Source: Chloroflexota bacterium
GTDB lineage: Bacteria > Chloroflexota > Dehalococcoidia > Bin125
Reading direction: 5' to 3'
Length of the DNA stretch: 64,000 nt
NCBI GenBank assembly: GCA_009838915.1
Contig: VXQT01000013.1
Span: 315,161-379,160 of the forward strand
Shown: positions 21,701-32,731 of the stretch, one piece after another
Position numbering within the stretch: the stretch's first letter is position 1
Layout of the letters: each line of letters starts with the position of its first letter
Program-made: the position numbers and the translations under genes
The notes under the pieces: generated by a model
Database searches by the model: none
Told to the model about the DNA's origin: nothing
The model's input: only the letters and a program-made list of their open reading frames with translations

Positions 21701-23957
<2,257 letters not shown>

Positions 23958-23971
<14 letters not shown>

Positions 23972-24922: not shown

Positions 24923-25657
24923 ATGAAGCCTATCGCCCGCATCTCGCCGACCCGCCTGCTTGCCGCGCTGGCGCTGGTAGCGCTCGCGCTCGCGCTGTTC
25001 ACGCTGCCGGTCGCGTTCACGGTCCGCTACGCCACTACGTCCGCCTCCTGGTGGGAGCGAGGCTTCGAGCGCTACGACGCCACCGGCCGCACCGGTCTCC
25101 CCCAGCATGAAGTGCTCCGGATCGCGGAAGAAACACGCGACTACCTGACCAACGACGACGTTCGCCTGGCGGTACAGGTCGGCGGCGCGCCGTTCTACAG
25201 CGAGCGCGAAATCCTGCACATGATCGACGTGAAGCGGCTCATGGCTCGCACGTTCGACGCCGGCTGGGCAGCCTTGGGCTTCATCGTCGCATTCATCGCG
25301 CTGTCCGTCTGGCGGCGCAGACGCGAAGCGCCCGTAGCATTGGCGCGGTCGACGCTCTCAGCATGTGGGGTCGTGGCACTGCTGGTCGTGGTGCTTGGCG
25401 TGATTGGCATCGCAGGATTCGACTCCGCCTTCCGGCAGTTCCACTTGCTCTTCTTCACCAACGATTTGTGGCAACTCAGCTCCAGAGACGGACTGATCCA
25501 GCTCTTTCCGCAGCGGTTCTTCTTCGACACGACGATGCTGATCGGGGGCGTGACGCTGGCGTTGGTCGTCGCTGCCGGCGCAGGATCCGCAACCTATCTG
25601 TGGTGGTTGCGCCGTACCGGTCGTTCGGGTCGCAACTACGATTCGGGAGTCGCGTAA
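24923..25657 (+). CDS. Integral membrane protein, DUF1461/TIGR01906-like
   Basis: N-terminal TM helix, a central soluble region, three further TM helices, and a conserved FFTNDLWQL motif. Confidence 0.55.
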   Translation: MKPIARISPTRLLAALALVALALALFTLPVAFTVRYATTSASWWERGFERYDATGRTGLPQHEVLRIAEETRDYLTNDDVRLAVQVGGAPFYSEREILHMIDVKRLMARTFDAGWAALGFIVAFIALSVWRRRREAPVALARSTLSACGVVALLVVVLGVIGIAGFDSAFRQFHLLFFTNDLWQLSSRDGLIQLFPQRFFFDTTMLIGGVTLALVVAAGAGSATYLWWLRRTGRSGRNYDSGVA

Positions 25658-27135
25658 GCGCCTGCTTCGTACCAGCCGGCCGTGAACAACAAGCCCTCGT
25701 GACGCACGACCCAGGTGTGCTTCTGCTCCTGCTCGCCGCTGTCGGGATTGAGAAACACGTAGCTCACCCAACCGCGATCTTCAATAGCAATGAACTCCTC
25801 GCGGAAGCGACGACCCGTGACATCGGGCCCGCCGTCGAGCAAGTTCTCTCCAAGCGGCAAGTAGGGATGCGCCAGCCGGGTGCCGTCGAGCTCGTAGATG
25901 CTCACGTACCACTCGCCGTCCACGCTGTCGGGCGAGTTGTGATACGCAATCACCGCTTCGCGACCATCGGCCTCGTAACGGTCGATCGCGTCCTGTACCA
26001 GAGCCCTGGCATAAGCGGCCGGATCTTGCTCTGCGAGATCGTAGTTGCGGTCATACCAGCCCGAGCCGAACAGCAGGTCTCCCTGCCGCACGATCCAACT
26101 GTGTTTGCGCTGGTACTGCAGCTCGGCGTCGGGATTGGGGAAGACGTACGAAATCCAGCCGCTCGTTTCGATCGACAGTGTGTCCGCCGTGTAGTCGTAG
26201 CCCGTCACGTCAACGCCGGTGCCGTGCAGGTTGCTGCCCAACCAGCCCGGCCGGTCGGCGCGAGCGCCGTTGACCAGGCGGGTGCCGTTCACATTGTGGA
26301 TGAACAGGTACCACTGCCCGTCGATGCTCTGTGGTGAGTTGTAGTACTCGAATGTCGCGTCCCGCCCGAGCACGCGGTACATCTCGAGCGCCCGCTCAAC
26401 GTAGGACTGGGTGAAGGCGCCCAGTGCGTGCGTCTTCGAAGGCCCATCCTCGTACCAACCGGAGCCAAAGATCAGGCCGTCGTGGCGCACAACCCAAGAG
26501 TGCTTAATCTCCGCCTGTCCGGTGGCCGGGTTGTCGAACTGGTAGTCGACCCAGCCGCCATTGCTCCTGGCAGCTGCCACCACGACTCGTCCTGCCGGGT
26601 ACCCGTCGGGTCCGTTGATGTCGTCGTTGTGCATACCAACCAGATCGGGATTTCGGTTGGCAATGGTCACTCCACTCTCATCGATGATGAAGACATACCA
26701 TTGCCCCTCAACGCTCTCAGGTGAGTTGTAGTAGGCCAGGGTCGCTTCACGTCCGTCGCGATCGAACCGAGCGATGGCTTGCTCGACGAACCACTGCGTG
26801 TACGCGGCGGGATCCGAGATGCGGGGAGCCGTTTCCGGGACACTGACGGCAATCGGGTCGCTGGCGTACCACTCGCCGGGCTCCGCGGGAACCGGCAGGA
26901 ATCGGGCCTCAGGCGTGTGAGTCATCCAATCGCTGCCGACGACCCTGGACTGCGCCCGCACTTCGACGCGACCGACGTCCGTCTCGCGCGCCTGCACGCG
27001 CACCTCGACTTCGCCGTCTCGGTCATTGTCGGAAGCCACGAACTCGAGCGGAAGCACACCGCTGAACACAACCACGGCGGACAGTGCAGCAACAAGCAAC
27101 GCCCCGGCAATCAGGGCACGTATCTGACGGGACAT
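25636..27135 (-). CDS. Secreted protein with three tandem single-Cache (sCache_2-like) domains
   Basis: N-terminal signal/TM (MSRQIRALIAGALLVAALSAVVV). Three ~125-aa repeats each read ...YYNSP(E/Q/D)SV(E/D)GQWY(V/L)FI...G(T/V)...(A/V)N...GGW(V/I)(D/S)Y(Q/V)F.NP....(K/H)(S/T)WVVRH(D/E/G)(D/G)L(I/L)FGSGWY. The repeats are also visible at the nucleotide level. Confidence 0.7.
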   Translation of the reverse strand: MSRQIRALIAGALLVAALSAVVVFSGVLPLEFVASDNDRDGEVEVRVQARETDVGRVEVRAQSRVVGSDWMTHTPEARFLPVPAEPGEWYASDPIAVSVPETAPRISDPAAYTQWFVEQAIARFDRDGREATLAYYNSPESVEGQWYVFIIDESGVTIANRNPDLVGMHNDDINGPDGYPAGRVVVAAARSNGGWVDYQFDNPATGQAEIKHSWVVRHDGLIFGSGWYEDGPSKTHALGAFTQSYVERALEMYRVLGRDATFEYYNSPQSIDGQWYLFIHNVNGTRLVNGARADRPGWLGSNLHGTGVDVTGYDYTADTLSIETSGWISYVFPNPDAELQYQRKHSWIVRQGDLLFGSGWYDRNYDLAEQDPAAYARALVQDAIDRYEADGREAVIAYHNSPDSVDGEWYVSIYELDGTRLAHPYLPLGENLLDGGPDVTGRRFREEFIAIEDRGWVSYVFLNPDSGEQEQKHTWVVRHEGLLFTAGWYEAGAYATPES

Positions 27136-27177
27136 GGGGTATCCAGACGCTAGCAGACTCGGAGGTGCGTAAGGTCT

Positions 27178-27429
27178 CTAGTTCAGCGCGCCCATGCCGC
27201 CGCCGCAACCGCAGGAGCCGCGACCGCAGGCGCATCCGCCGCCTGTTGGCATCGCTTCAGCCGCGTCGACATCCGAGTACTGACCGGCAATCGAAACCAT
27301 CGCCGTCGTCAGCACCTTCTGCGCGACCGCGCCGCAGTCGCACTCGTACGGCTCTGAGGCGGCGCTCATTGGCCGCAGCTTGGTGAACTTCTCGTTGCAG
27401 TCTCGGCAATAGTACTCGTACATCGGCAT
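27178..27429 (-). CDS. FmdB-family zinc-ribbon protein with Cys/Gly-rich C-terminus
   Basis: MPMYEYYCRDCNEKF...YECDCG, C-terminus GGGCACGRGSCGCGGG. Start reassigned to ATG 27429 (GGAG ribosome-binding site); the track ORF extended into the tRNA. Confidence 0.75.
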   Translation of the reverse strand: MPMYEYYCRDCNEKFTKLRPMSAASEPYECDCGAVAQKVLTTAMVSIAGQYSDVDAAEAMPTGGGCACGRGSCGCGGGMGALN

Positions 27430-27525
27430 GGCTGGCGCTCCGCCTTCTTGCTCATGGTCTGCCCGCAGGATACGAAACAGACCGCGAGGATCAATCGAGC
27501 CGCTCGCGAATACACTCAGCAACAG

Positions 27526-27600
27526 CCCCCCGTAGCTCAGGGGATAGAGCACCGGTTTCCTAAACCGCGCGCGGAGGTTCGAATCCTCCCGGGGGGACCA
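27526..27600 (+). tRNA. tRNA-Arg (anticodon CCT)
   Basis: Cloverleaf by hand: acceptor CCCCCCG/CGGGGGG, D-arm GCTC..GAGC, anticodon loop TTCCTAA, T-arm GGAGG-TTCGAAT-CCTCC, encoded CCA. C1:G72 is unusual; coordinates +/-2. Confidence 0.75.
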
Positions 27601-27651
27601 GAGGACGTAGCTGCGTCCAGCCGAATCCCTAATGCCTGATACGTTGCGGCG

Positions 27652-28920
27652 ATGAGCGACCTCGCCGCCGAGAAGCGAGCCGTGCGCGGCGTGCCGCTCC
27701 CGGTGGTTGCCGTTGCGCTGGCCGTTGCAGCGACGCTACTTGGCGACTCGATGCTCTACGCCGTGATGCCCTCGCAGCCCGAGGCCTGGGCGCTCTCGCT
27801 GCCTGCGGTCGGCATCCTGCTCTCGGCCAACCGACTGGTGCGACTCGTCACCAATTCAGTGGTGGCGGTGATCTTCCAGCGACTCGGCCAGCGCGGCCCG
27901 TTTATCGCGGCTCTGTTGTTGTCAGTAGTGGTCACGCTCTGCTACGGCTGGTCCACCGCCTTCGGACTGCTCCTGGCGGCGAGGATGGTCTGGGGATTTT
28001 GCTGGTCGACTCTCCGGCTGGGCGGCTTCTGGACCGTGCTGAGCGAGGCTGGAGACCACAATCGCGGGCTGCTAATGGGCGCCTACTCGGCGATTGTGCG
28101 CATGGGATCGGTTGGCGGTGTACTGGTCGGCGCTGCCCTGACCGATCTCTTCGGACACCGCCTGACCCTGACTCTCTTCGCCGCCGTGATGGCTGGGACG
28201 GCCGTCGCCTGGGTACTCACCAGCAGGCGGCCGGCCCTGGCCGCTCGGCCGGCGCAGCGCGAGTCGGAACGCACCGATCTCCGCGTTGTGCTCACCGACC
28301 GGCGCCTGCTGGTCACTTGCGGCGCCATTCTGGTCACCGGGCTCGTCTTCTCCGGGCTGGTCACTGCCTCGCTCGGCTTCTACCTCAAAGAGCACTTCGG
28401 TCAACAGATCGCAATCCTCGGGATGGCCCTCGGCGTCACCACTGCTACGGGAATCCTGCTCGGGTCCCAGTGGCTACCGCTCTCGCCGCTGTTTGGCTAC
28501 CTCTCCGACCGCTTTGGCCGCGTCATAGTGATCAGCGCAGGCTTTGCGACCGGGGCCGCCTGGCTGGTTGTCCTGGCCGCCACCGACTCGATCTGGCTGA
28601 TCCTGGCTGCCGTTCTCTCCGCCTTCGTTGCTTCTACGTCCCTCACCGTGACCCTGCACGCGACCGCCGGCGACCTCGCTCCGCCCGAGCGTCGCAATGC
28701 CGTGCTCAGCGCCTACGCCACCTTCCTCGACCTGGGCAGCGCTCTCGGGCCGCTGATTGGCCTCTCATTCGCCAGCCTGGCGGCCCTTCAAGGTCTCTAC
28801 AGCGGAGCAGCCGTGCTGCTAGTGGTGGCAGCGCTCAGCTTCTGGCTCGTCTTTCGCGGCGGACCATCACAGGTCGCTCACTCGGACCCGAACGAGACTC
28901 AACCCACGGAGACTTGGTAG
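27652..28920 (+). CDS. MFS transporter
   Basis: 422 aa with 12 predicted TM helices and MFS-like loops. Confidence 0.8.
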   Translation: MSDLAAEKRAVRGVPLPVVAVALAVAATLLGDSMLYAVMPSQPEAWALSLPAVGILLSANRLVRLVTNSVVAVIFQRLGQRGPFIAALLLSVVVTLCYGWSTAFGLLLAARMVWGFCWSTLRLGGFWTVLSEAGDHNRGLLMGAYSAIVRMGSVGGVLVGAALTDLFGHRLTLTLFAAVMAGTAVAWVLTSRRPALAARPAQRESERTDLRVVLTDRRLLVTCGAILVTGLVFSGLVTASLGFYLKEHFGQQIAILGMALGVTTATGILLGSQWLPLSPLFGYLSDRFGRVIVISAGFATGAAWLVVLAATDSIWLILAAVLSAFVASTSLTVTLHATAGDLAPPERRNAVLSAYATFLDLGSALGPLIGLSFASLAALQGLYSGAAVLLVVAALSFWLVFRGGPSQVAHSDPNETQPTETW

Positions 28921-28930
28921 CCCTTCTGCC

Positions 28931-30250
28931 TCAACCTGCCAACGCGTCCTCAACTCTCAACGCCTGACCCAGCAGAGTTTCGTCGTGGCCAAAGCGGCCT
29001 ACGAGGGAGAGACCGAGCGGGAGGCCGTCAACGTCGCCGAACGGCAGGTTGATCACCGGCATCCCGGCGTGGGTCCAGGGCAGGTTCATTCGTGGATCAC
29101 CGGTCGAGCCCAGACCATGCGGCGCCGGACCGACCGCTGACGGCGCCAGCCAGACGTCGATGCCGGCCCGATCCATGCGCTCGTGCAGCCGCTGGCGCAG
29201 CGCGATACGACTGGCCCGTCCGGTTTCGGCAGTGGCTGGGGAGACGGCCAATCCTGTCTCGAAAAACTCCGCGCTCTGGGGACGGAACATCGCCCCGTAC
29301 TTGGCGTAACGCTCGCGATGCGTCTCTGTGAACTCGAAGACGGTCAGATCGCTGTGTCGTTTGTTGATGTCAGCGATGTCGTGCAAGGTCATCACGTCTG
29401 CAATGTCGATGCCTGCGTCGCTCAGTAGCTCCGTCGCCTGGGCCAGGGCTGCGCGGACTTCCTGCCCTGCTTGTTCCAGAAATGGCCCGGCCGGTATCCC
29501 GATTCTTGGAGTCGTCGCCTCCGCGTCTTCACCGTTTCTCCAACCCAACAGCAGGGCGGAAGCGGCCAGCGTCGCGTCCGTGACCGAGTTGACGAAGAAG
29601 CCGATCGTGTCGACTGACGGAGAGAAGTACAGCGTCCCACCGGTCGGAATCCGGTCATACGAAGGCTTGAAGCCGACCGCGCCGCAAAACGACGCAGGAC
29701 GAATGACCGAGCCGACAGTCTGTGAACCGACCGCCAACGGCGCGATTCCGGCCGCGACTGCCGCGGCCGAGCCGCTGCTCGAACCGCCGGGCGTGTGCTC
29801 CCGATCGTGGGGATTGGCTGTCGCGCCGGAGGCGAAGTAGGCGAACTCGGTGGTCACGGCCTTGCCCAGGACGAGCGCGCCCGTCTCTTTGAGCCGTGCG
29901 ACCACATCGGCTTCGCGTCCGCTGAAGGACTCCGGCGGCACCGCCGAACCGGCACGTGTCGGCATCCGGTCGACATTGAAGATGTCCTTGACTGCAACCA
30001 TCGCGCCGAAGAGCGGCGGCCGATCCTCCGGCGACGGCCAACGTTCCATGAGCGTCGCCGCCTCCGCCGAGAGCCGTTCCCGTTGCCGCGGGTCGGGCAG
30101 CATCGCGCGGACGAGCGGATTGACTTCATCCAGCCGATCGAGCGACTGCGCAATCAGGTCCTGCAATGAGAGCGCGCCGGATCGAGCCGCGGCGACCTGC
30201 TTGCTCAGGGAGAGCGGTTGCACCAGGTTGAGCGTCGTTGCGTCCGGCAT
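28931..30250 (-). CDS. Amidase (amidase-signature family)
   Basis: GGSSSGSAAAVAAG amidase signature with KD...S catalytic context. Start at ATG 30250 (MPDATT, GGAG ribosome-binding site) rather than the track's TTG at 30265. Confidence 0.85.
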   Translation of the reverse strand: MPDATTLNLVQPLSLSKQVAAARSGALSLQDLIAQSLDRLDEVNPLVRAMLPDPRQRERLSAEAATLMERWPSPEDRPPLFGAMVAVKDIFNVDRMPTRAGSAVPPESFSGREADVVARLKETGALVLGKAVTTEFAYFASGATANPHDREHTPGGSSSGSAAAVAAGIAPLAVGSQTVGSVIRPASFCGAVGFKPSYDRIPTGGTLYFSPSVDTIGFFVNSVTDATLAASALLLGWRNGEDAEATTPRIGIPAGPFLEQAGQEVRAALAQATELLSDAGIDIADVMTLHDIADINKRHSDLTVFEFTETHRERYAKYGAMFRPQSAEFFETGLAVSPATAETGRASRIALRQRLHERMDRAGIDVWLAPSAVGPAPHGLGSTGDPRMNLPWTHAGMPVINLPFGDVDGLPLGLSLVGRFGHDETLLGQALRVEDALAG

Positions 30251-30268
30251 ATCGGGTTGCTCCAATCG

Positions 30269-30321
30269 ATGCCCCCCTCTGCCTTCGGCATCTCCCCCCG
30301 CTGCGCGGGGGGAGAGAGGGG
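30269..30321. repeat. GC-rich double-hairpin intergenic repeat element, copy A (terminator-like)
   Basis: ATGCCCCCCTCTGCCTTCGGCAT + CTCCCCCCGC-TGCG-GCGGGGGGAG + AGAGGGG. Near-identical reverse-complement copy at 37668-37718. Lies between the DinB-like gene and the amidase on the minus strand. Confidence 0.7.
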
Positions 30322-30323
30322 CG

Positions 30324-30854
30324 TTAGAAGCCGAGGCCTTCCTTGCCCTGCATTGAGCGGCCGACGTTGATCTGACCCAGGTGGTTGTTCGAGTGGTTGA
30401 TGATGACCTGACCGATGATCTCCCACTTGGGAAGCTCGCCCTGGGGCACGATGCGGGTGATCGAGTTCAGGTACTCGGGAGTCATCTCAGCGATGCGCGG
30501 GACAATCACATCGGCCACGTCGTTGAGATAGCCGGCAATGGTTGCGCCGTCAGGGAACACCCAGCTTGAGACTTCCTCGTAGCTGGTACCGGTGCCCTGG
30601 TCGACCTTGGGCAGTCCCCACTCCTCGAACAGGTTCTTCGACATCCAGATCGGCTGTTCGCGCTCGAAGGCGAAGTGAATCAGGTTGTCGGCGGTGCGGG
30701 CGATGTGCCAGGCCTCGAAGCCGATGCAGTTCTGACCCTCGAATGTGCAGAAGTGGACCTCGTCCTGCGAAAGGTCCTCCATCGACTGCGCGGTCCAGCG
30801 CAGCACGCGGTCGGTGAACTTGGCCAGCGCGGCCGCGAGATCGTTGTCTGCCAT
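30324..30854 (-). CDS. DinB/DinB_2-family four-helix-bundle protein
   Basis: 176 aa with ...WHIARTADNLIHFA... and ...INHSNNHLGQI... DinB-like His motifs. GGAGG ribosome-binding site. Confidence 0.6.
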   Translation of the reverse strand: MADNDLAAALAKFTDRVLRWTAQSMEDLSQDEVHFCTFEGQNCIGFEAWHIARTADNLIHFAFEREQPIWMSKNLFEEWGLPKVDQGTGTSYEEVSSWVFPDGATIAGYLNDVADVIVPRIAEMTPEYLNSITRIVPQGELPKWEIIGQVIINHSNNHLGQINVGRSMQGKEGLGF

Positions 30855-30905
30855 CGTCAGTCCTCCAGTTGGGTTGGCTGTGTCGTCATGAGTCCTTGAT
30901 GCACG

Positions 30906-31916
30906 TTAGCCGACGATCTGCGCGAGCACGTCGGCCCACTCGCGGTCGTCCTCGGTGTCGACCGACACCTGGTGCAGGTCGACTCCAGCTGCAGTCTGTT
31001 CCTCGATATGCCGAACGCACTCGTCGAGTGATCCCCGGCAGGAGAAGCGCGGCGCGATCTCCAATGCGATCTCCGCCGCCGCGCCTGGACCACCATCCTG
31101 CCACGCGTCGCGCATGGCGGCGACTTCGTCGCCGAACCCGTGCCGCTCGAACTGCCGGAAGTAGCCCGGACCGTTGCGCACGGCAAAGAACGAGAGTCCC
31201 TGCGCGAACCCTCGGTCAAGATCCGCCTGCCGCTCCGCAGCAAGCACCACGGTCGCCGACCCAGGCGAGCGGACCTCCACCGCCTCGGCGCTCCTGCCGG
31301 CGTCCACCGACCAGTGCCGCACCTGCGCGATTGACTCAGAAACCCGGTCGTTGGGAATCCAGGTCGGCATCCAGCCGTCGGCGATCTCGGCCGTCATCTT
31401 GACCGAGGTCGGATTCAACGTCGCCAGGTGGATTGGCGGAGTGCGCTGCGACGGGATCATCCCGCTGACCAGCGCTCGCTCCACGTGAATCGTGGGGCCG
31501 TCGTAGCTGAAGCGTTCGCGCGACCAGTACAGCCGGATCAGTTCGACCGCCTCGCGGATGCGGGCGAACGGCCGCTCGAACTTGACGCCGTGAAACCGCT
31601 CGATCGCGCCAGGCGCGCTGGCGCCCAGACCAACCACCACGCGTCCCCCCGATAACTGATCGACCGTGCCGAAGCTCTGCGCCAATGTCGCCGGTGTGCG
31701 CGAGAACACGTTGACGATCGCTGATGCAATCCGCACGTTCGACGTCTCGTGCGCCAGCAGCGCCATTCCGGTGAACGCGTCGTGACCGTATCCCTCGATC
31801 ACGCAGATCGTGTCGACGCCAATCTGGTCGGCCAGCCTCGCGCGGGCGAGGAAGGTGTCGACGAAGTCGGGATTCCAGGGCAGGTTGACGGACACGCGCC
31901 GCGTCACTGATGTCAT
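30906..31916 (-). CDS. LLM-class F420/flavin-dependent oxidoreductase
   Basis: Luciferase-like domain. Start reassigned to MTSVTRR (ATG 31916), which overlaps the upstream methyltransferase stop (ATGA). Confidence 0.8.
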   Translation of the reverse strand: MTSVTRRVSVNLPWNPDFVDTFLARARLADQIGVDTICVIEGYGHDAFTGMALLAHETSNVRIASAIVNVFSRTPATLAQSFGTVDQLSGGRVVVGLGASAPGAIERFHGVKFERPFARIREAVELIRLYWSRERFSYDGPTIHVERALVSGMIPSQRTPPIHLATLNPTSVKMTAEIADGWMPTWIPNDRVSESIAQVRHWSVDAGRSAEAVEVRSPGSATVVLAAERQADLDRGFAQGLSFFAVRNGPGYFRQFERHGFGDEVAAMRDAWQDGGPGAAAEIALEIAPRFSCRGSLDECVRHIEEQTAAGVDLHQVSVDTEDDREWADVLAQIVG

Positions 31917-32731
31917 AGCCAGGGATCTCCTTCGCAGACCGTCGCCGAGAGCAGCCAAATCTTGACCGGGCAGCGAACCTGCCCGTCGGGATCCACAACG
32001 CGATCATCCTCGCGCAACTCTCCGGCGATTGCCTCAATCATCCGCTCACGGTCGGTGGGCAGAAAGCCGAACGCATCCAGCATTCCCCACCAATCGTCGA
32101 AGCTGTCCCACCAGAATTCCCGCTCAATCTCCTCAATCGTTACGTCATCCAAACGGCGCTCGTCGTTCTCGCTGAGCAGCGCCAGGCGCACCGCCTCTCG
32201 CGGATCGAATCGCATCTCGACATCAGGCCTGACCACACCGCGGCGTTCCAGATGTCCGAGCAGGCGCGTGCCGGCCGAACCGAAGAATGGCGAGCCGATT
32301 ACCGTTGCCGCGACCCTACCGCCGAGCCGCGTCAGGCGCGTCGCTTCCTTGAGCAACAAGAGCGGTCGCTCCGCGTAAGGAAGGACGAACCCAAGGGATA
32401 CCGCGCTGGCCGATCGGTCGCGAAGTCCCGTGGCGGCGGCGTCTTCCTGGATGAACCTGGGCGCCAGGACGGCACGGCGAAATCGGTCTCTGGCAAGTTC
32501 GAGTTGCACTCTCGACAGATCAGCGCCCACCGCGCTCCCGCGTGTGAGCAGCGGCGCCGCGTGGGCAATCACCGCTCCAGGACCGCAACCGAGATCGACC
32601 AGGTCGCTATCGGCCTGCAGGTTGAGCCGCTTGATCAGCTCGGACGCGGCCAGATTGATCAGTTCCGGCGCCGACTGCTCGTATGCGGCGCCACTGAGAT
32701 TGAAGGTCTCGGCGATATCCTCGTTCCGCAC
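31913..32731 (-). CDS. Class I SAM-dependent methyltransferase
   Basis: Motif I LVDLGCGPG. The track ORF N-terminus (to 32941) overlaps the divergent GDPD gene, so the start is reassigned to GTG 32731 (VRNEDIAETF); the start is uncertain. Confidence 0.65.
   Translation of the reverse strand: MRNEDIAETFNLSGAAYEQSAPELINLAASELIKRLNLQADSDLVDLGCGPGAVIAHAAPLLTRGSAVGADLSRVQLELARDRFRRAVLAPRFIQEDAAATGLRDRSASAVSLGFVLPYAERPLLLLKEATRLTRLGGRVAATVIGSPFFGSAGTRLLGHLERRGVVRPDVEMRFDPREAVRLALLSENDERRLDDVTIEEIEREFWWDSFDDWWGMLDAFGFLPTDRERMIEAIAGELREDDRVVDPDGQVRCPVKIWLLSATVCEGDPWL

Follow-up and report, generated by a model that had tools for sequence, protein, structure and literature searches.

The window analysed here is a stretch of 64,000 nucleotides (nt) from a Chloroflexota bacterium of the Dehalococcoidia (GenBank assembly GCA_009838915.1, contig VXQT01000013.1, positions 315,161 to 379,160 of the forward strand), and the element under study is a gene on its minus strand at 25636..27135. 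The gene is complete, with its stop codon at 25636-25638, and according to the open reading frame (ORF) list and Pfam it encodes an exported protein of 499 amino acids (aa) with three Cache repeats, hereafter the Cache protein. Its product consists of an export segment, a conserved domain of about 70 residues and three sCache_2 domains placed head to tail. The original prediction, made from the letters alone, had described a secreted protein built solely from three tandem sCache_2-like domains and devoid of an output domain. BLASTP and the sCache_2 hidden Markov model (HMM) bore out the three repeats, and neither Pfam nor NCBIfam detected an output domain in the protein; the word "solely" did not survive, given the separate domain present at residues 36-105.

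The coding region can be divided into five parts, all on the minus strand. Residues 1-35 (27031..27135) form the export signal, and residues 36-105 (26821..27030) make up a beta-rich N-terminal domain specific to the orthologs found at this locus. These are followed by three sCache_2-type repeats: R1 at residues 106-232 (26440..26820), R2 at residues 233-365 (26041..26439), which contains a conserved extra loop (GARADRPGWLGSNLHGTGVDVTGYDY), and R3 at residues 366-499 (25639..26040). A homolog search retrieved a near-twin, P0002, that is 99% identical to the Cache protein, and more than 1800 homologs in all.

The domains are sCache_2 by HMM, by comparison of profiles with the PDB and by predicted fold. 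The protein matched the Pfam sCache_2 model (PF17200) at 57.6 bits, where the gathering threshold is 25, with two stretches listed, the best of them at residues 129-216 in R1; the Cache assignment therefore held when checked against the family model. Pfam dCache_2 (PF08269) also exceeded its threshold (50.7 against 26.5 bits). Since the dCache_2 model derives from duplicated sCache_2 (PMC4822843), any tandem sCache_2 pair matches it, and beside that score stand the separate N-terminal helix of each repeat and the 1-16 copies carried by members of the family. The Pfam scan returned nothing else of significance, including no match to VWA, dCache_1 or solute-binding protein (SBP) families, and NCBIfam gave only a sub-threshold likeness to Cache-containing sensors.

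An AlphaFold2 model built from the ortholog alignment reached a mean predicted local distance difference test score (pLDDT) of 83.7 and a predicted template modelling score (pTM) of 0.69, with the three repeats mostly above 90. Each modelled repeat begins with helices (for example, 109-127 and 129-136) and continues into a five-stranded sheet with pLDDT above 90, which corresponds to the long N-terminal helix and PAS-like alpha/beta core of the sCache_2 fold. The best single-domain Foldseek matches in the PDB were 4exo/2qhk, 4k08, TlpB (3ub6-9) and PscD (5g4y), with target template modelling (TM) scores of 0.54-0.66; these top matches are sCache_2 sensor domains with ligand, so that the structure prediction agreed with the assignment first proposed. 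Multi-PAS proteins and CACHD1 (8s7c, E 2.3e-05) matched as arrays, with poor superposition. A profile of the repeats compared with the PDB retrieved sCache_2 structures only, namely PscD 5g4y (5e-07), Adeh_3718 4k08 (5.9e-07) and TlpB (9.4e-06), while with phmmer R1 matched TlpB 3ub6 and PscD 5g4y, TlpB being the best single-sequence match in the PDB at 8e-05.

The N-terminus carries the features expected of an exported protein, as had been proposed. A basic n-region (MSRQIR) precedes a 24-residue hydrophobic segment and the sequence FVAS, followed by DN. Simple rules locate a single hydrophobic segment at residues 7-30; Kyte-Doolittle hydropathy reaches 2.53 at residues 7-25 and at most 0.6 elsewhere, and no second membrane helix was found by hydropathy in the protein. 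The AlphaFold2 model places a helix at residues 3-24 and disorder at 25-40. Across 28 orthologs S35 is invariant and A33 at least 90% conserved, with the remainder of the segment variable, a pattern that fits the -1/-3 rule of signal peptidase I at a site between FVAS and DN. Export and cleavage are predicted by simple rules, and the segment may be a Sec signal peptide that is removed or one that stays in place as a signal anchor. The protein contains no cysteine and has no lipobox; many paralogs have clear lipoboxes or AXA sites followed by Q. An extracytoplasmic location is predicted from the basic region with its one hydrophobic segment and from relatives that bear lipobox, SLH or sortase signals.

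The domain that follows, at residues 36-105, shows 16 invariant columns in the ortholog alignment. Pfam gave no match to it, and further attempts at identification were also without result; AlphaFold2 modelled residues 42-98 as a small beta domain of lower confidence. It occupies the position where paralogs have a lipid, collagen-like or SLH anchor, and on that account it may keep the protein attached to the envelope or form a stalk.

Chemoreceptors and histidine kinases are the usual setting of Cache domains (PMC4822843), which raises the question of whether the gene is the remnant of such a receptor, its C-terminal part lost by frameshift or truncation. Several observations speak against it. 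The 28 orthologs, at 58-83% identity, share the same C-terminal end point, and the window protein stops nine residues after the last beta-strand of R3. All of the 120 top homologs consist of Cache repeats only and have too little sequence after the last repeat for an output domain; no output family of Pfam was found among them. Moreover, the DNA beyond the stop codon is taken up by the 3' end of a conserved, convergent gene for a Lit-family membrane protein (24923..25657, plus strand; PF07314, 93.9 bits), and the second transmembrane segment of a receptor is absent. These common ends, Cache-only homologs, the downstream Lit gene and the single hydrophobic segment rule out a truncated chemoreceptor or kinase, and the idea of a remnant is left with next to no probability. 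The ORF is real and intact, and does not represent a broken sensor.

The three repeats are 127-134 aa long. Whole-protein self-BLASTP returned the identity match alone; compared pair by pair, the repeats align with E values from 1e-29 to 1e-36 (R2 with R1 at 7e-29 and with R3 at 1e-35) and share 39-47% of their residues. The original prediction had held that they were recognisable by a shared DNA motif and that this implied a recent internal duplication. The motif, which encodes the conserved peptide L(I/L)FGSGWY(E/D), is exact at 26450-26476 and has one mismatch at 26051-26077, but it is absent from the third repeat. The inference of recency had to be abandoned. Nucleotide identity between the repeats is 53-56% and third-codon-position identity 42-48% at a third-position GC content (GC3) of 0.78, where, by our estimate, base composition alone would yield about one third identity at these positions; with synonymous sites near saturation, such low values indicate that the duplication is old. 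The repeat types are furthermore kept between species, at identities of 0.6-0.95 within a type against approximately 0.42 between types. Mean column conservation across orthologs is higher in R2 (0.86) than in R1 and R3 (0.77-0.78).

The possibility that the protein binds small molecules, raised at the outset, appears plausible, as it keeps the residues by which carboxylate-binding sCache_2 domains contact their ligands. In PscD, the ligand carboxylate is hydrogen-bonded by Tyr90, His103, Tyr143 and Lys156, Trp92 and Trp145 sandwich it, and Phe126 forms the back wall (PMC5062169). The equivalent positions were mapped by single-sequence alignment and, independently, by profile alignment to PscD, Adeh_3718 and 2qhk/4exo, with both approaches in agreement, and a census of 517 repeats was taken across the family. 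Tyr90 corresponds to Y147, Y276 and Y410 in R1, R2 and R3, respectively (Y in 97% of family repeats); His103 to N160, N289 and H423 (H in 73%, N in 19%); Tyr143 to Y198, Y330 and Y459 (Y in 98%); and Lys156 to K211, K344 and K472 (K in 99%). The sandwich position Trp92 is occupied by F149, F278 and S412 (F in 85%) and Trp145 by F200, F332 and F461 (F in 64%, Y in 21%), while the back-wall Phe126 is replaced by G182, T316 and R445 (G in 83%).

The comparison of pockets among the three repeats, made by alignment, thus gives the quartets YNYK, YNYK and YHYK for R1, R2 and R3. Of the 517 repeats, 373 (72%) have the complete YHYK quartet and 19% have YNYK; in R3 of the window protein, H423 is invariant among orthologs. 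The positions expected to govern specificity differ between R1, R2 and R3 (F/F/S, N/N/H and G/T/R), and each of these states is kept among orthologs. Conservation of the polar pocket residues in repeats that are only about 42% identical argues that each repeat may still bind something with a carboxylate-like group, and the ortholog-conserved differences at the specificity positions argue that R1, R2 and R3 differ from one another in ligand or in mode of binding. The glycine found at the back wall in most family repeats suggests ligands larger than C2-C3 acids.

The same residues bear on another explanation, in which the Cache fold would serve as a rigid repeat unit of a structural surface protein or adhesin that binds sponge matrix or cells, small-molecule binding being vestigial. 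Retention of the polar positions in 97-99% of repeats so divergent in sequence would be unexpected for a pure scaffold, as would the distinct specificity positions maintained among orthologs, and the window protein has no adhesin-type domain. Support for this idea comes from the wider family, which was surveyed by an exhaustive search over 1.84 billion cluster representatives. The search returned 2248 matches at E<=1e-3; 689 remained at a threshold of 1e-10, and 222 clusters at 1e-30. Every close relative belongs to a metagenome-assembled genome (MAG) of the Chloroflexota/Dehalococcoidia, and the isolate names (RHO, IRC, SB06xx, bin125), read together with PMC8163846, suggest marine sponges as the probable source. 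The family with this build is large and uncharacterised.

Repeat number, counted in 147 newly retrieved sequences among the best 150 representatives, spans the full range of 1-16, and relatives with more repeats reach sCache_2 scores of up to 563 bits. Even orthologs at the syntenic locus carry two, three, four or five repeats: two in L025 (8001-9092) and five in L021-L024 (8001-9900). In P0043, an R1 is followed by an R1-like second repeat and an R3, with no repeat of the R2 type. Variation among these proteins indicates that whole repeats are swapped in and out at one locus. Internal repeats at least 90% identical occur in 20 of 121 proteins, and some reach 100%, so gain and loss of whole domains is still going on in the family, though not in the window protein.

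Attachment to the cell surface takes at least four forms in the family: a signal peptide or anchor, a lipobox, SLH domains and sortase signals. An N-terminal hydrophobic export segment is present in 223 of 267 members, 81 of which have a lipobox-like sequence, followed in 18 of these 81 by collagen-like Gly-X-Y runs. SLH domains occur in P0110 and two further representatives, and sortase-type tails in P0123, P0142 and P0065; such signals in the family include PPDTG, MPETG or LPATG, then a hydrophobic stretch and an Arg-rich tail.

The 39 representatives with long regions outside the repeats were scanned by Pfam. HAMP, MCPsignal, HisKA, HATPase_c, GGDEF, EAL and protein kinase domains were found in none of the 39, and the search suggested earlier for homologs fused to MCP or kinase domains came back empty both there and among the best 120 homologs. 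The extra domains detected were PPC, Collagen, RCC1, SLH, Cadherin-like, Laminin_G_3, Ig, Peptidase_S8, 5_nucleotid_C, SIMPL, DUF6851 with VCPO-like, SBP_bac_3 (in two proteins) and SBP_bac_5 with Peripla_BP_6/ANF_receptor; among the closest relatives examined (147 representatives), the repeats are fused to other extracellular modules only. All of these observations put the repeat on the exterior of the cell and tied to its envelope, next to enzymes, adhesion modules and binding proteins. Individual examples include P0151, where Laminin_G_3 and Ig domains accompany the Cache repeats, P0128, in which the Cache repeats are joined to the C-terminal domain of a 5'-nucleotidase and the chain ends in a hydrophobic tail, and P0266 (2036 aa), where SBP_bac_5, Cache repeats, Peripla_BP_6 and ANF_receptor form a chain of unrelated solute-binding folds.

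Several of these features favour the adhesin explanation. SLH domains, sortase signals and lipoboxes with collagen-like stalks are typical of surface-layer proteins and adhesins, some relatives are fused to Cadherin-like, Laminin_G_3 or Ig domains, repeats have expanded with up to 100% internal identity, and one paralog lies near a cadherin/leucine-rich-repeat (LRR) protein in a region rich in mobile elements. Enrichment in attachment proteins has moreover been reported for sponge symbionts (PMC8163846). Set against the conserved pockets, these points leave a purely structural role rather improbable.

The surroundings of paralogous genes are heterogeneous. Three lipoprotein-type paralog neighbourhoods share nothing with one another and include no recurrent transporter; one paralog lies amid transposases near the cadherin/LRR protein, and another between thrS and infC. 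P0061 (L032, 8001-10172), a lipoprotein paralog, has five repeats besides a collagen-like stalk, and three of the five are 100% identical. Its gene lies amid transposase, integrase and ParB genes, with the cadherin/LRR protein about 7 kb away, and its 90%-identity cluster comprises 788 member sequences. Additional small Cache-repeat genes, at a distance of a few kb from the main member of the family, were observed in L034 (3293-4339, plus strand, 348 aa, upstream of P0050) and in L013 (1223-1804, minus strand, a single repeat), which suggests several Cache-array paralogs per genome.

At the window locus itself, the gene neighbourhood was compared across 31 related loci reaching down to about 50% identity of the Cache protein. 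The gene order is constant: Zn-ribbon, Cache, convergent Lit, MazG and UvrD/PcrA. Lit and MazG are present in all 31 loci and uvrD in 29, and a locus that lacks one gene of the block does so at a contig end or an insertion. The Zn_ribbon_8 (FmdB-type) gene (27178..27429, minus strand, 83 aa; 39.1 bits in Pfam) begins the block upstream, 42 nt from the Cache start codon, and lies directly upstream of the Cache gene in 30 of the 31 loci; the 31st, L027, ends at a contig edge there. The two genes are possibly co-transcribed. A longer Zn_ribbon_8 ORF of 124 aa (27178-27552, minus strand) overlaps a tRNA on the opposite strand, and the genuine gene is most probably the 83-aa form that begins at ATG 27429 (MPMYEYYCRDC...), which is also the form called in related contigs.

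On the downstream side, the 3' ends of the Cache and Lit genes overlap by 22 nt (25636-25657) in mechanical ORF calls and by 4 nt according to the genes called in L028, which leaves no space for a terminator between them; the convergent arrangement is kept in all 31 loci. A scan of 25300-27800 for promoters and terminators, using a sigma-70 consensus that is possibly unsuited to this phylum, found no promoter-like site; the one terminator-like site it gave lies within the coding region and is no more than chance would produce. Lit proteins belong to a lipoprotein transacylase family, and many Cache paralogs are lipoproteins. A functional link between the two genes was therefore considered and set aside: the window protein has no cysteine, and the adjacency is uninformative because the entire uvrD-mazG-lit-cache-Zn-ribbon block is syntenic across the clade.

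Upstream of the block, a tRNA-Arg(CCT) gene (27526-27600, plus strand) lies between the Zn-ribbon gene and an MFS gene (27652-28920). The latter is 517 nt from the Cache gene, beyond the Zn-ribbon gene and the tRNA, and its proximity had given rise to the proposal that the Cache protein is a solute-binding protein delivering substrate to adjacent transporters. In strain L030, whose Cache protein is 99% identical, nucleotide identity is 97.8% up to the exact end of the tRNA-Arg, with none beyond it, and L028-L031 carry a protein of 1521-1544 aa of the AAA_30 type and unknown ORFs where the window has the MFS gene. This break in identity, with different genes beyond it, assigns the MFS gene to a strain-variable island whose edge is marked by the tRNA-Arg. 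The gene adjoins the Cache locus in just one of the 31 loci, and no ABC, TRAP or TTT genes were found in the conserved Cache neighbourhood of the 31.

Some relatives do lend the transport proposal a degree of support, as some distant relatives are fused to SBP_bac_3, SBP_bac_5 or Peripla_BP_6, and one paralog lies beside an ABC importer. This importer, next to P0034, is of the LIV type and complete, a Peripla_BP_6 binding protein of its own included, and the Cache fold is not the bilobed fold of binding proteins. MFS carriers are not known to use binding proteins. Delivery of substrate to a neighbouring transporter is consequently considered very improbable.

Two further observations concern the flanks of the locus. 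Identity to L030 remains at 97.8% from 27600 down to 23398, within uvrD (21701-23971, plus strand), where approximately 400 nt (22993-23398) are unaligned before identity resumes at 87.8%; UvrD is 71% identical to that of L030 over the best segment, and the neighbouring MazG is 100% identical. This looks like a recombination breakpoint inside uvrD. On the other side, a block of amidase, DinB_2 and luciferase-like (LLM) oxidoreductase genes (28931-31958, minus strand) is found upstream in about two-thirds of the related genomes, at a variable distance.

Cache is regarded as the largest family of prokaryotic extracellular sensor modules, and according to Upadhyay et al. (2016) it is confined to proteins that have a signalling output, SMP_2 being the sole exception (PMC4822843). 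The domains characterised there lie between two transmembrane helices and co-occur with an output domain; the window protein has one hydrophobic segment, and no output domain accompanies the repeats in it, in the 120 homologs or in the 39 representatives. Carboxylate-binding sCache_2 chemoreceptors such as PscD (5g4y), Adeh_3718 (4k08), the V. parahaemolyticus MCP (2qhk/4exo) and McpP share the Pfam family and the fold, and the carboxylate-contacting residues of PscD align with the family consensus Y, H, Y and K. They differ in sequence (approximately 18-23% identity) and in build, the window protein having three tandem copies on one export segment without an output. The aromatic sandwich consists of Trp in PscD and Phe in the array family, and ligand size is likely to differ, given the glycine found in the family at the position of Phe126. 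TlpB of Helicobacter pylori (3ub6-3ub9), the best single-sequence match in the PDB with a target TM score of about 0.55, is a chemoreceptor with an output domain that binds urea rather than a carboxylate, in a pocket unlike that of the carboxylate binders (PMC5062169); its example means that the ligand class is not readable from family membership alone.

By its logic, the nearest analogue is the animal alpha2delta/CACHD1 group (8s7c), whose members likewise have several Cache modules tethered to the outer side of the membrane and lack an enzymatic output of their own. The likeness is at the level of fold alone: the modules of that group are of the dCache_1 type, are combined with VWA, which the window protein lacks, and act through a partner channel or receptor. 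Eukaryotic alpha2delta/CACHD1, bacterial YycH/YycI and binding-protein-dependent sensors act as co-sensors in trans. This precedent suggests a further explanation, in which the array would bind its ligand at the surface and modulate a separate membrane sensor kinase, transporter or channel by contact. The match of the model to the output-less, multi-Cache CACHD1 agrees with it, and the conserved, membrane-proximal N-terminal domain of the orthologs could dock a partner; in addition, a histidine kinase and binding-protein genes lie less than 6 kb from one paralog (L035). A sensory role is also favoured by the fact that, elsewhere, Cache domains nearly always serve as sensory inputs (PMC4822843). 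However, no conserved signalling gene is found beside the Cache orthologs in the 31 loci or next to the three paralogs, a repeat number of 2-5 at one locus and 1-16 in the family does not fit easily with docking in one fixed geometry, and the repeats are fused to enzymes, adhesion modules and binding proteins instead of transducers. A co-sensor acting in trans is thus held to be unlikely, while retaining an appreciable share of the probability.

Outside signal transduction, two groups of proteins invite comparison. Solute-binding proteins of the ABC, TRAP and TTT types are also extracytoplasmic, often lipid-anchored in monoderms and dedicated to non-catalytic binding of small solutes, and some relatives of the Cache protein are fused to SBP modules; nevertheless, the Cache fold is not a Venus flytrap, no cognate transporter lies nearby, and variable tandem copies are not characteristic of them. 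Gram-positive surface proteins with tandem carbohydrate-binding modules, or with SLH or sortase anchoring, resemble the family in its anchors, its variable tandem modules and its enzyme fusions, but their repeated module is not Cache, and the window protein itself lacks SLH, sortase and lipobox signals. The Cache protein would work most like the binding module of a surface protein or a solute-binding protein and belongs to neither by fold or gene context. The Cache domain is not known to serve as a surface-display binding module. In the open-access literature searched, no description was found of output-less tandem sCache_2 arrays or of Cache linked to sponge Chloroflexota, nor anything relevant on Cache in Dehalococcoidia or together with surface anchors, and a large study of sponge MAGs does not mention Cache (PMC8163846). 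The Cache domain is well known; the array architecture and the use it implies are not.

Taken together, the explanation that we moderately favour is that the Cache protein, without a signalling function, presents three distinct pockets in an array at the cell surface and there captures or holds molecules that bear a carboxylate. In the mechanism proposed, the protein would be exported and stay associated with the cell envelope, and each repeat would bind its ligand in the canonical sCache_2 pocket, where Tyr, His or Asn, Tyr and Lys would hold the carboxylate as in PscD and Adeh_3718. The three pockets would have different specificities, and binding would not be relayed to a built-in output. 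The array could then capture or hold free metabolites, or acidic groups on host polymers, at the surface, and gain or loss of whole repeats would tune its capacity or avidity.

Several points weigh against this explanation. Output domains were examined in the best 120 homologs and in 147 relatives out of 2248 matches, and a partner encoded elsewhere in the genome is possible. The pocket assignment derives from alignments, by sequence and by profile, in which identity to the crystal structures is about 20%. The two tyrosines and the lysine are conserved across sCache_2 generally (PMC5062169), and part of their conservation could be structural, while in R1 and R2 of the window protein Asn replaces His. 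Export and cleavage, finally, rest on simple rules and not on a trained predictor.

A broader proposal, put forward tentatively and with more doubt than confidence, extends from the protein to its family. Tandem Cache arrays may constitute an unrecognised class of non-signalling bacterial surface proteins, in which the commonest extracellular sensor domain of prokaryotes has been turned into a capture or adhesion module tunable by copy number. With such proteins, Chloroflexota symbionts of sponges might hold host-derived acids or acidic glycans, and the arrays would be a counterpart of the animal alpha2delta/CACHD1 proteins.

Cache arrays of this kind would show a second life of the domain as a plain binding module, and both genome annotation and censuses of signal transduction would have to be adjusted where they treat "Cache" as a sensor. 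The family would also offer a naturally diversified set of ready-made pockets for binding studies. Furthermore, these arrays bear on the origin of the output-less Cache proteins of animals and on how abundant, uncultured sponge symbionts deal with host-derived molecules.

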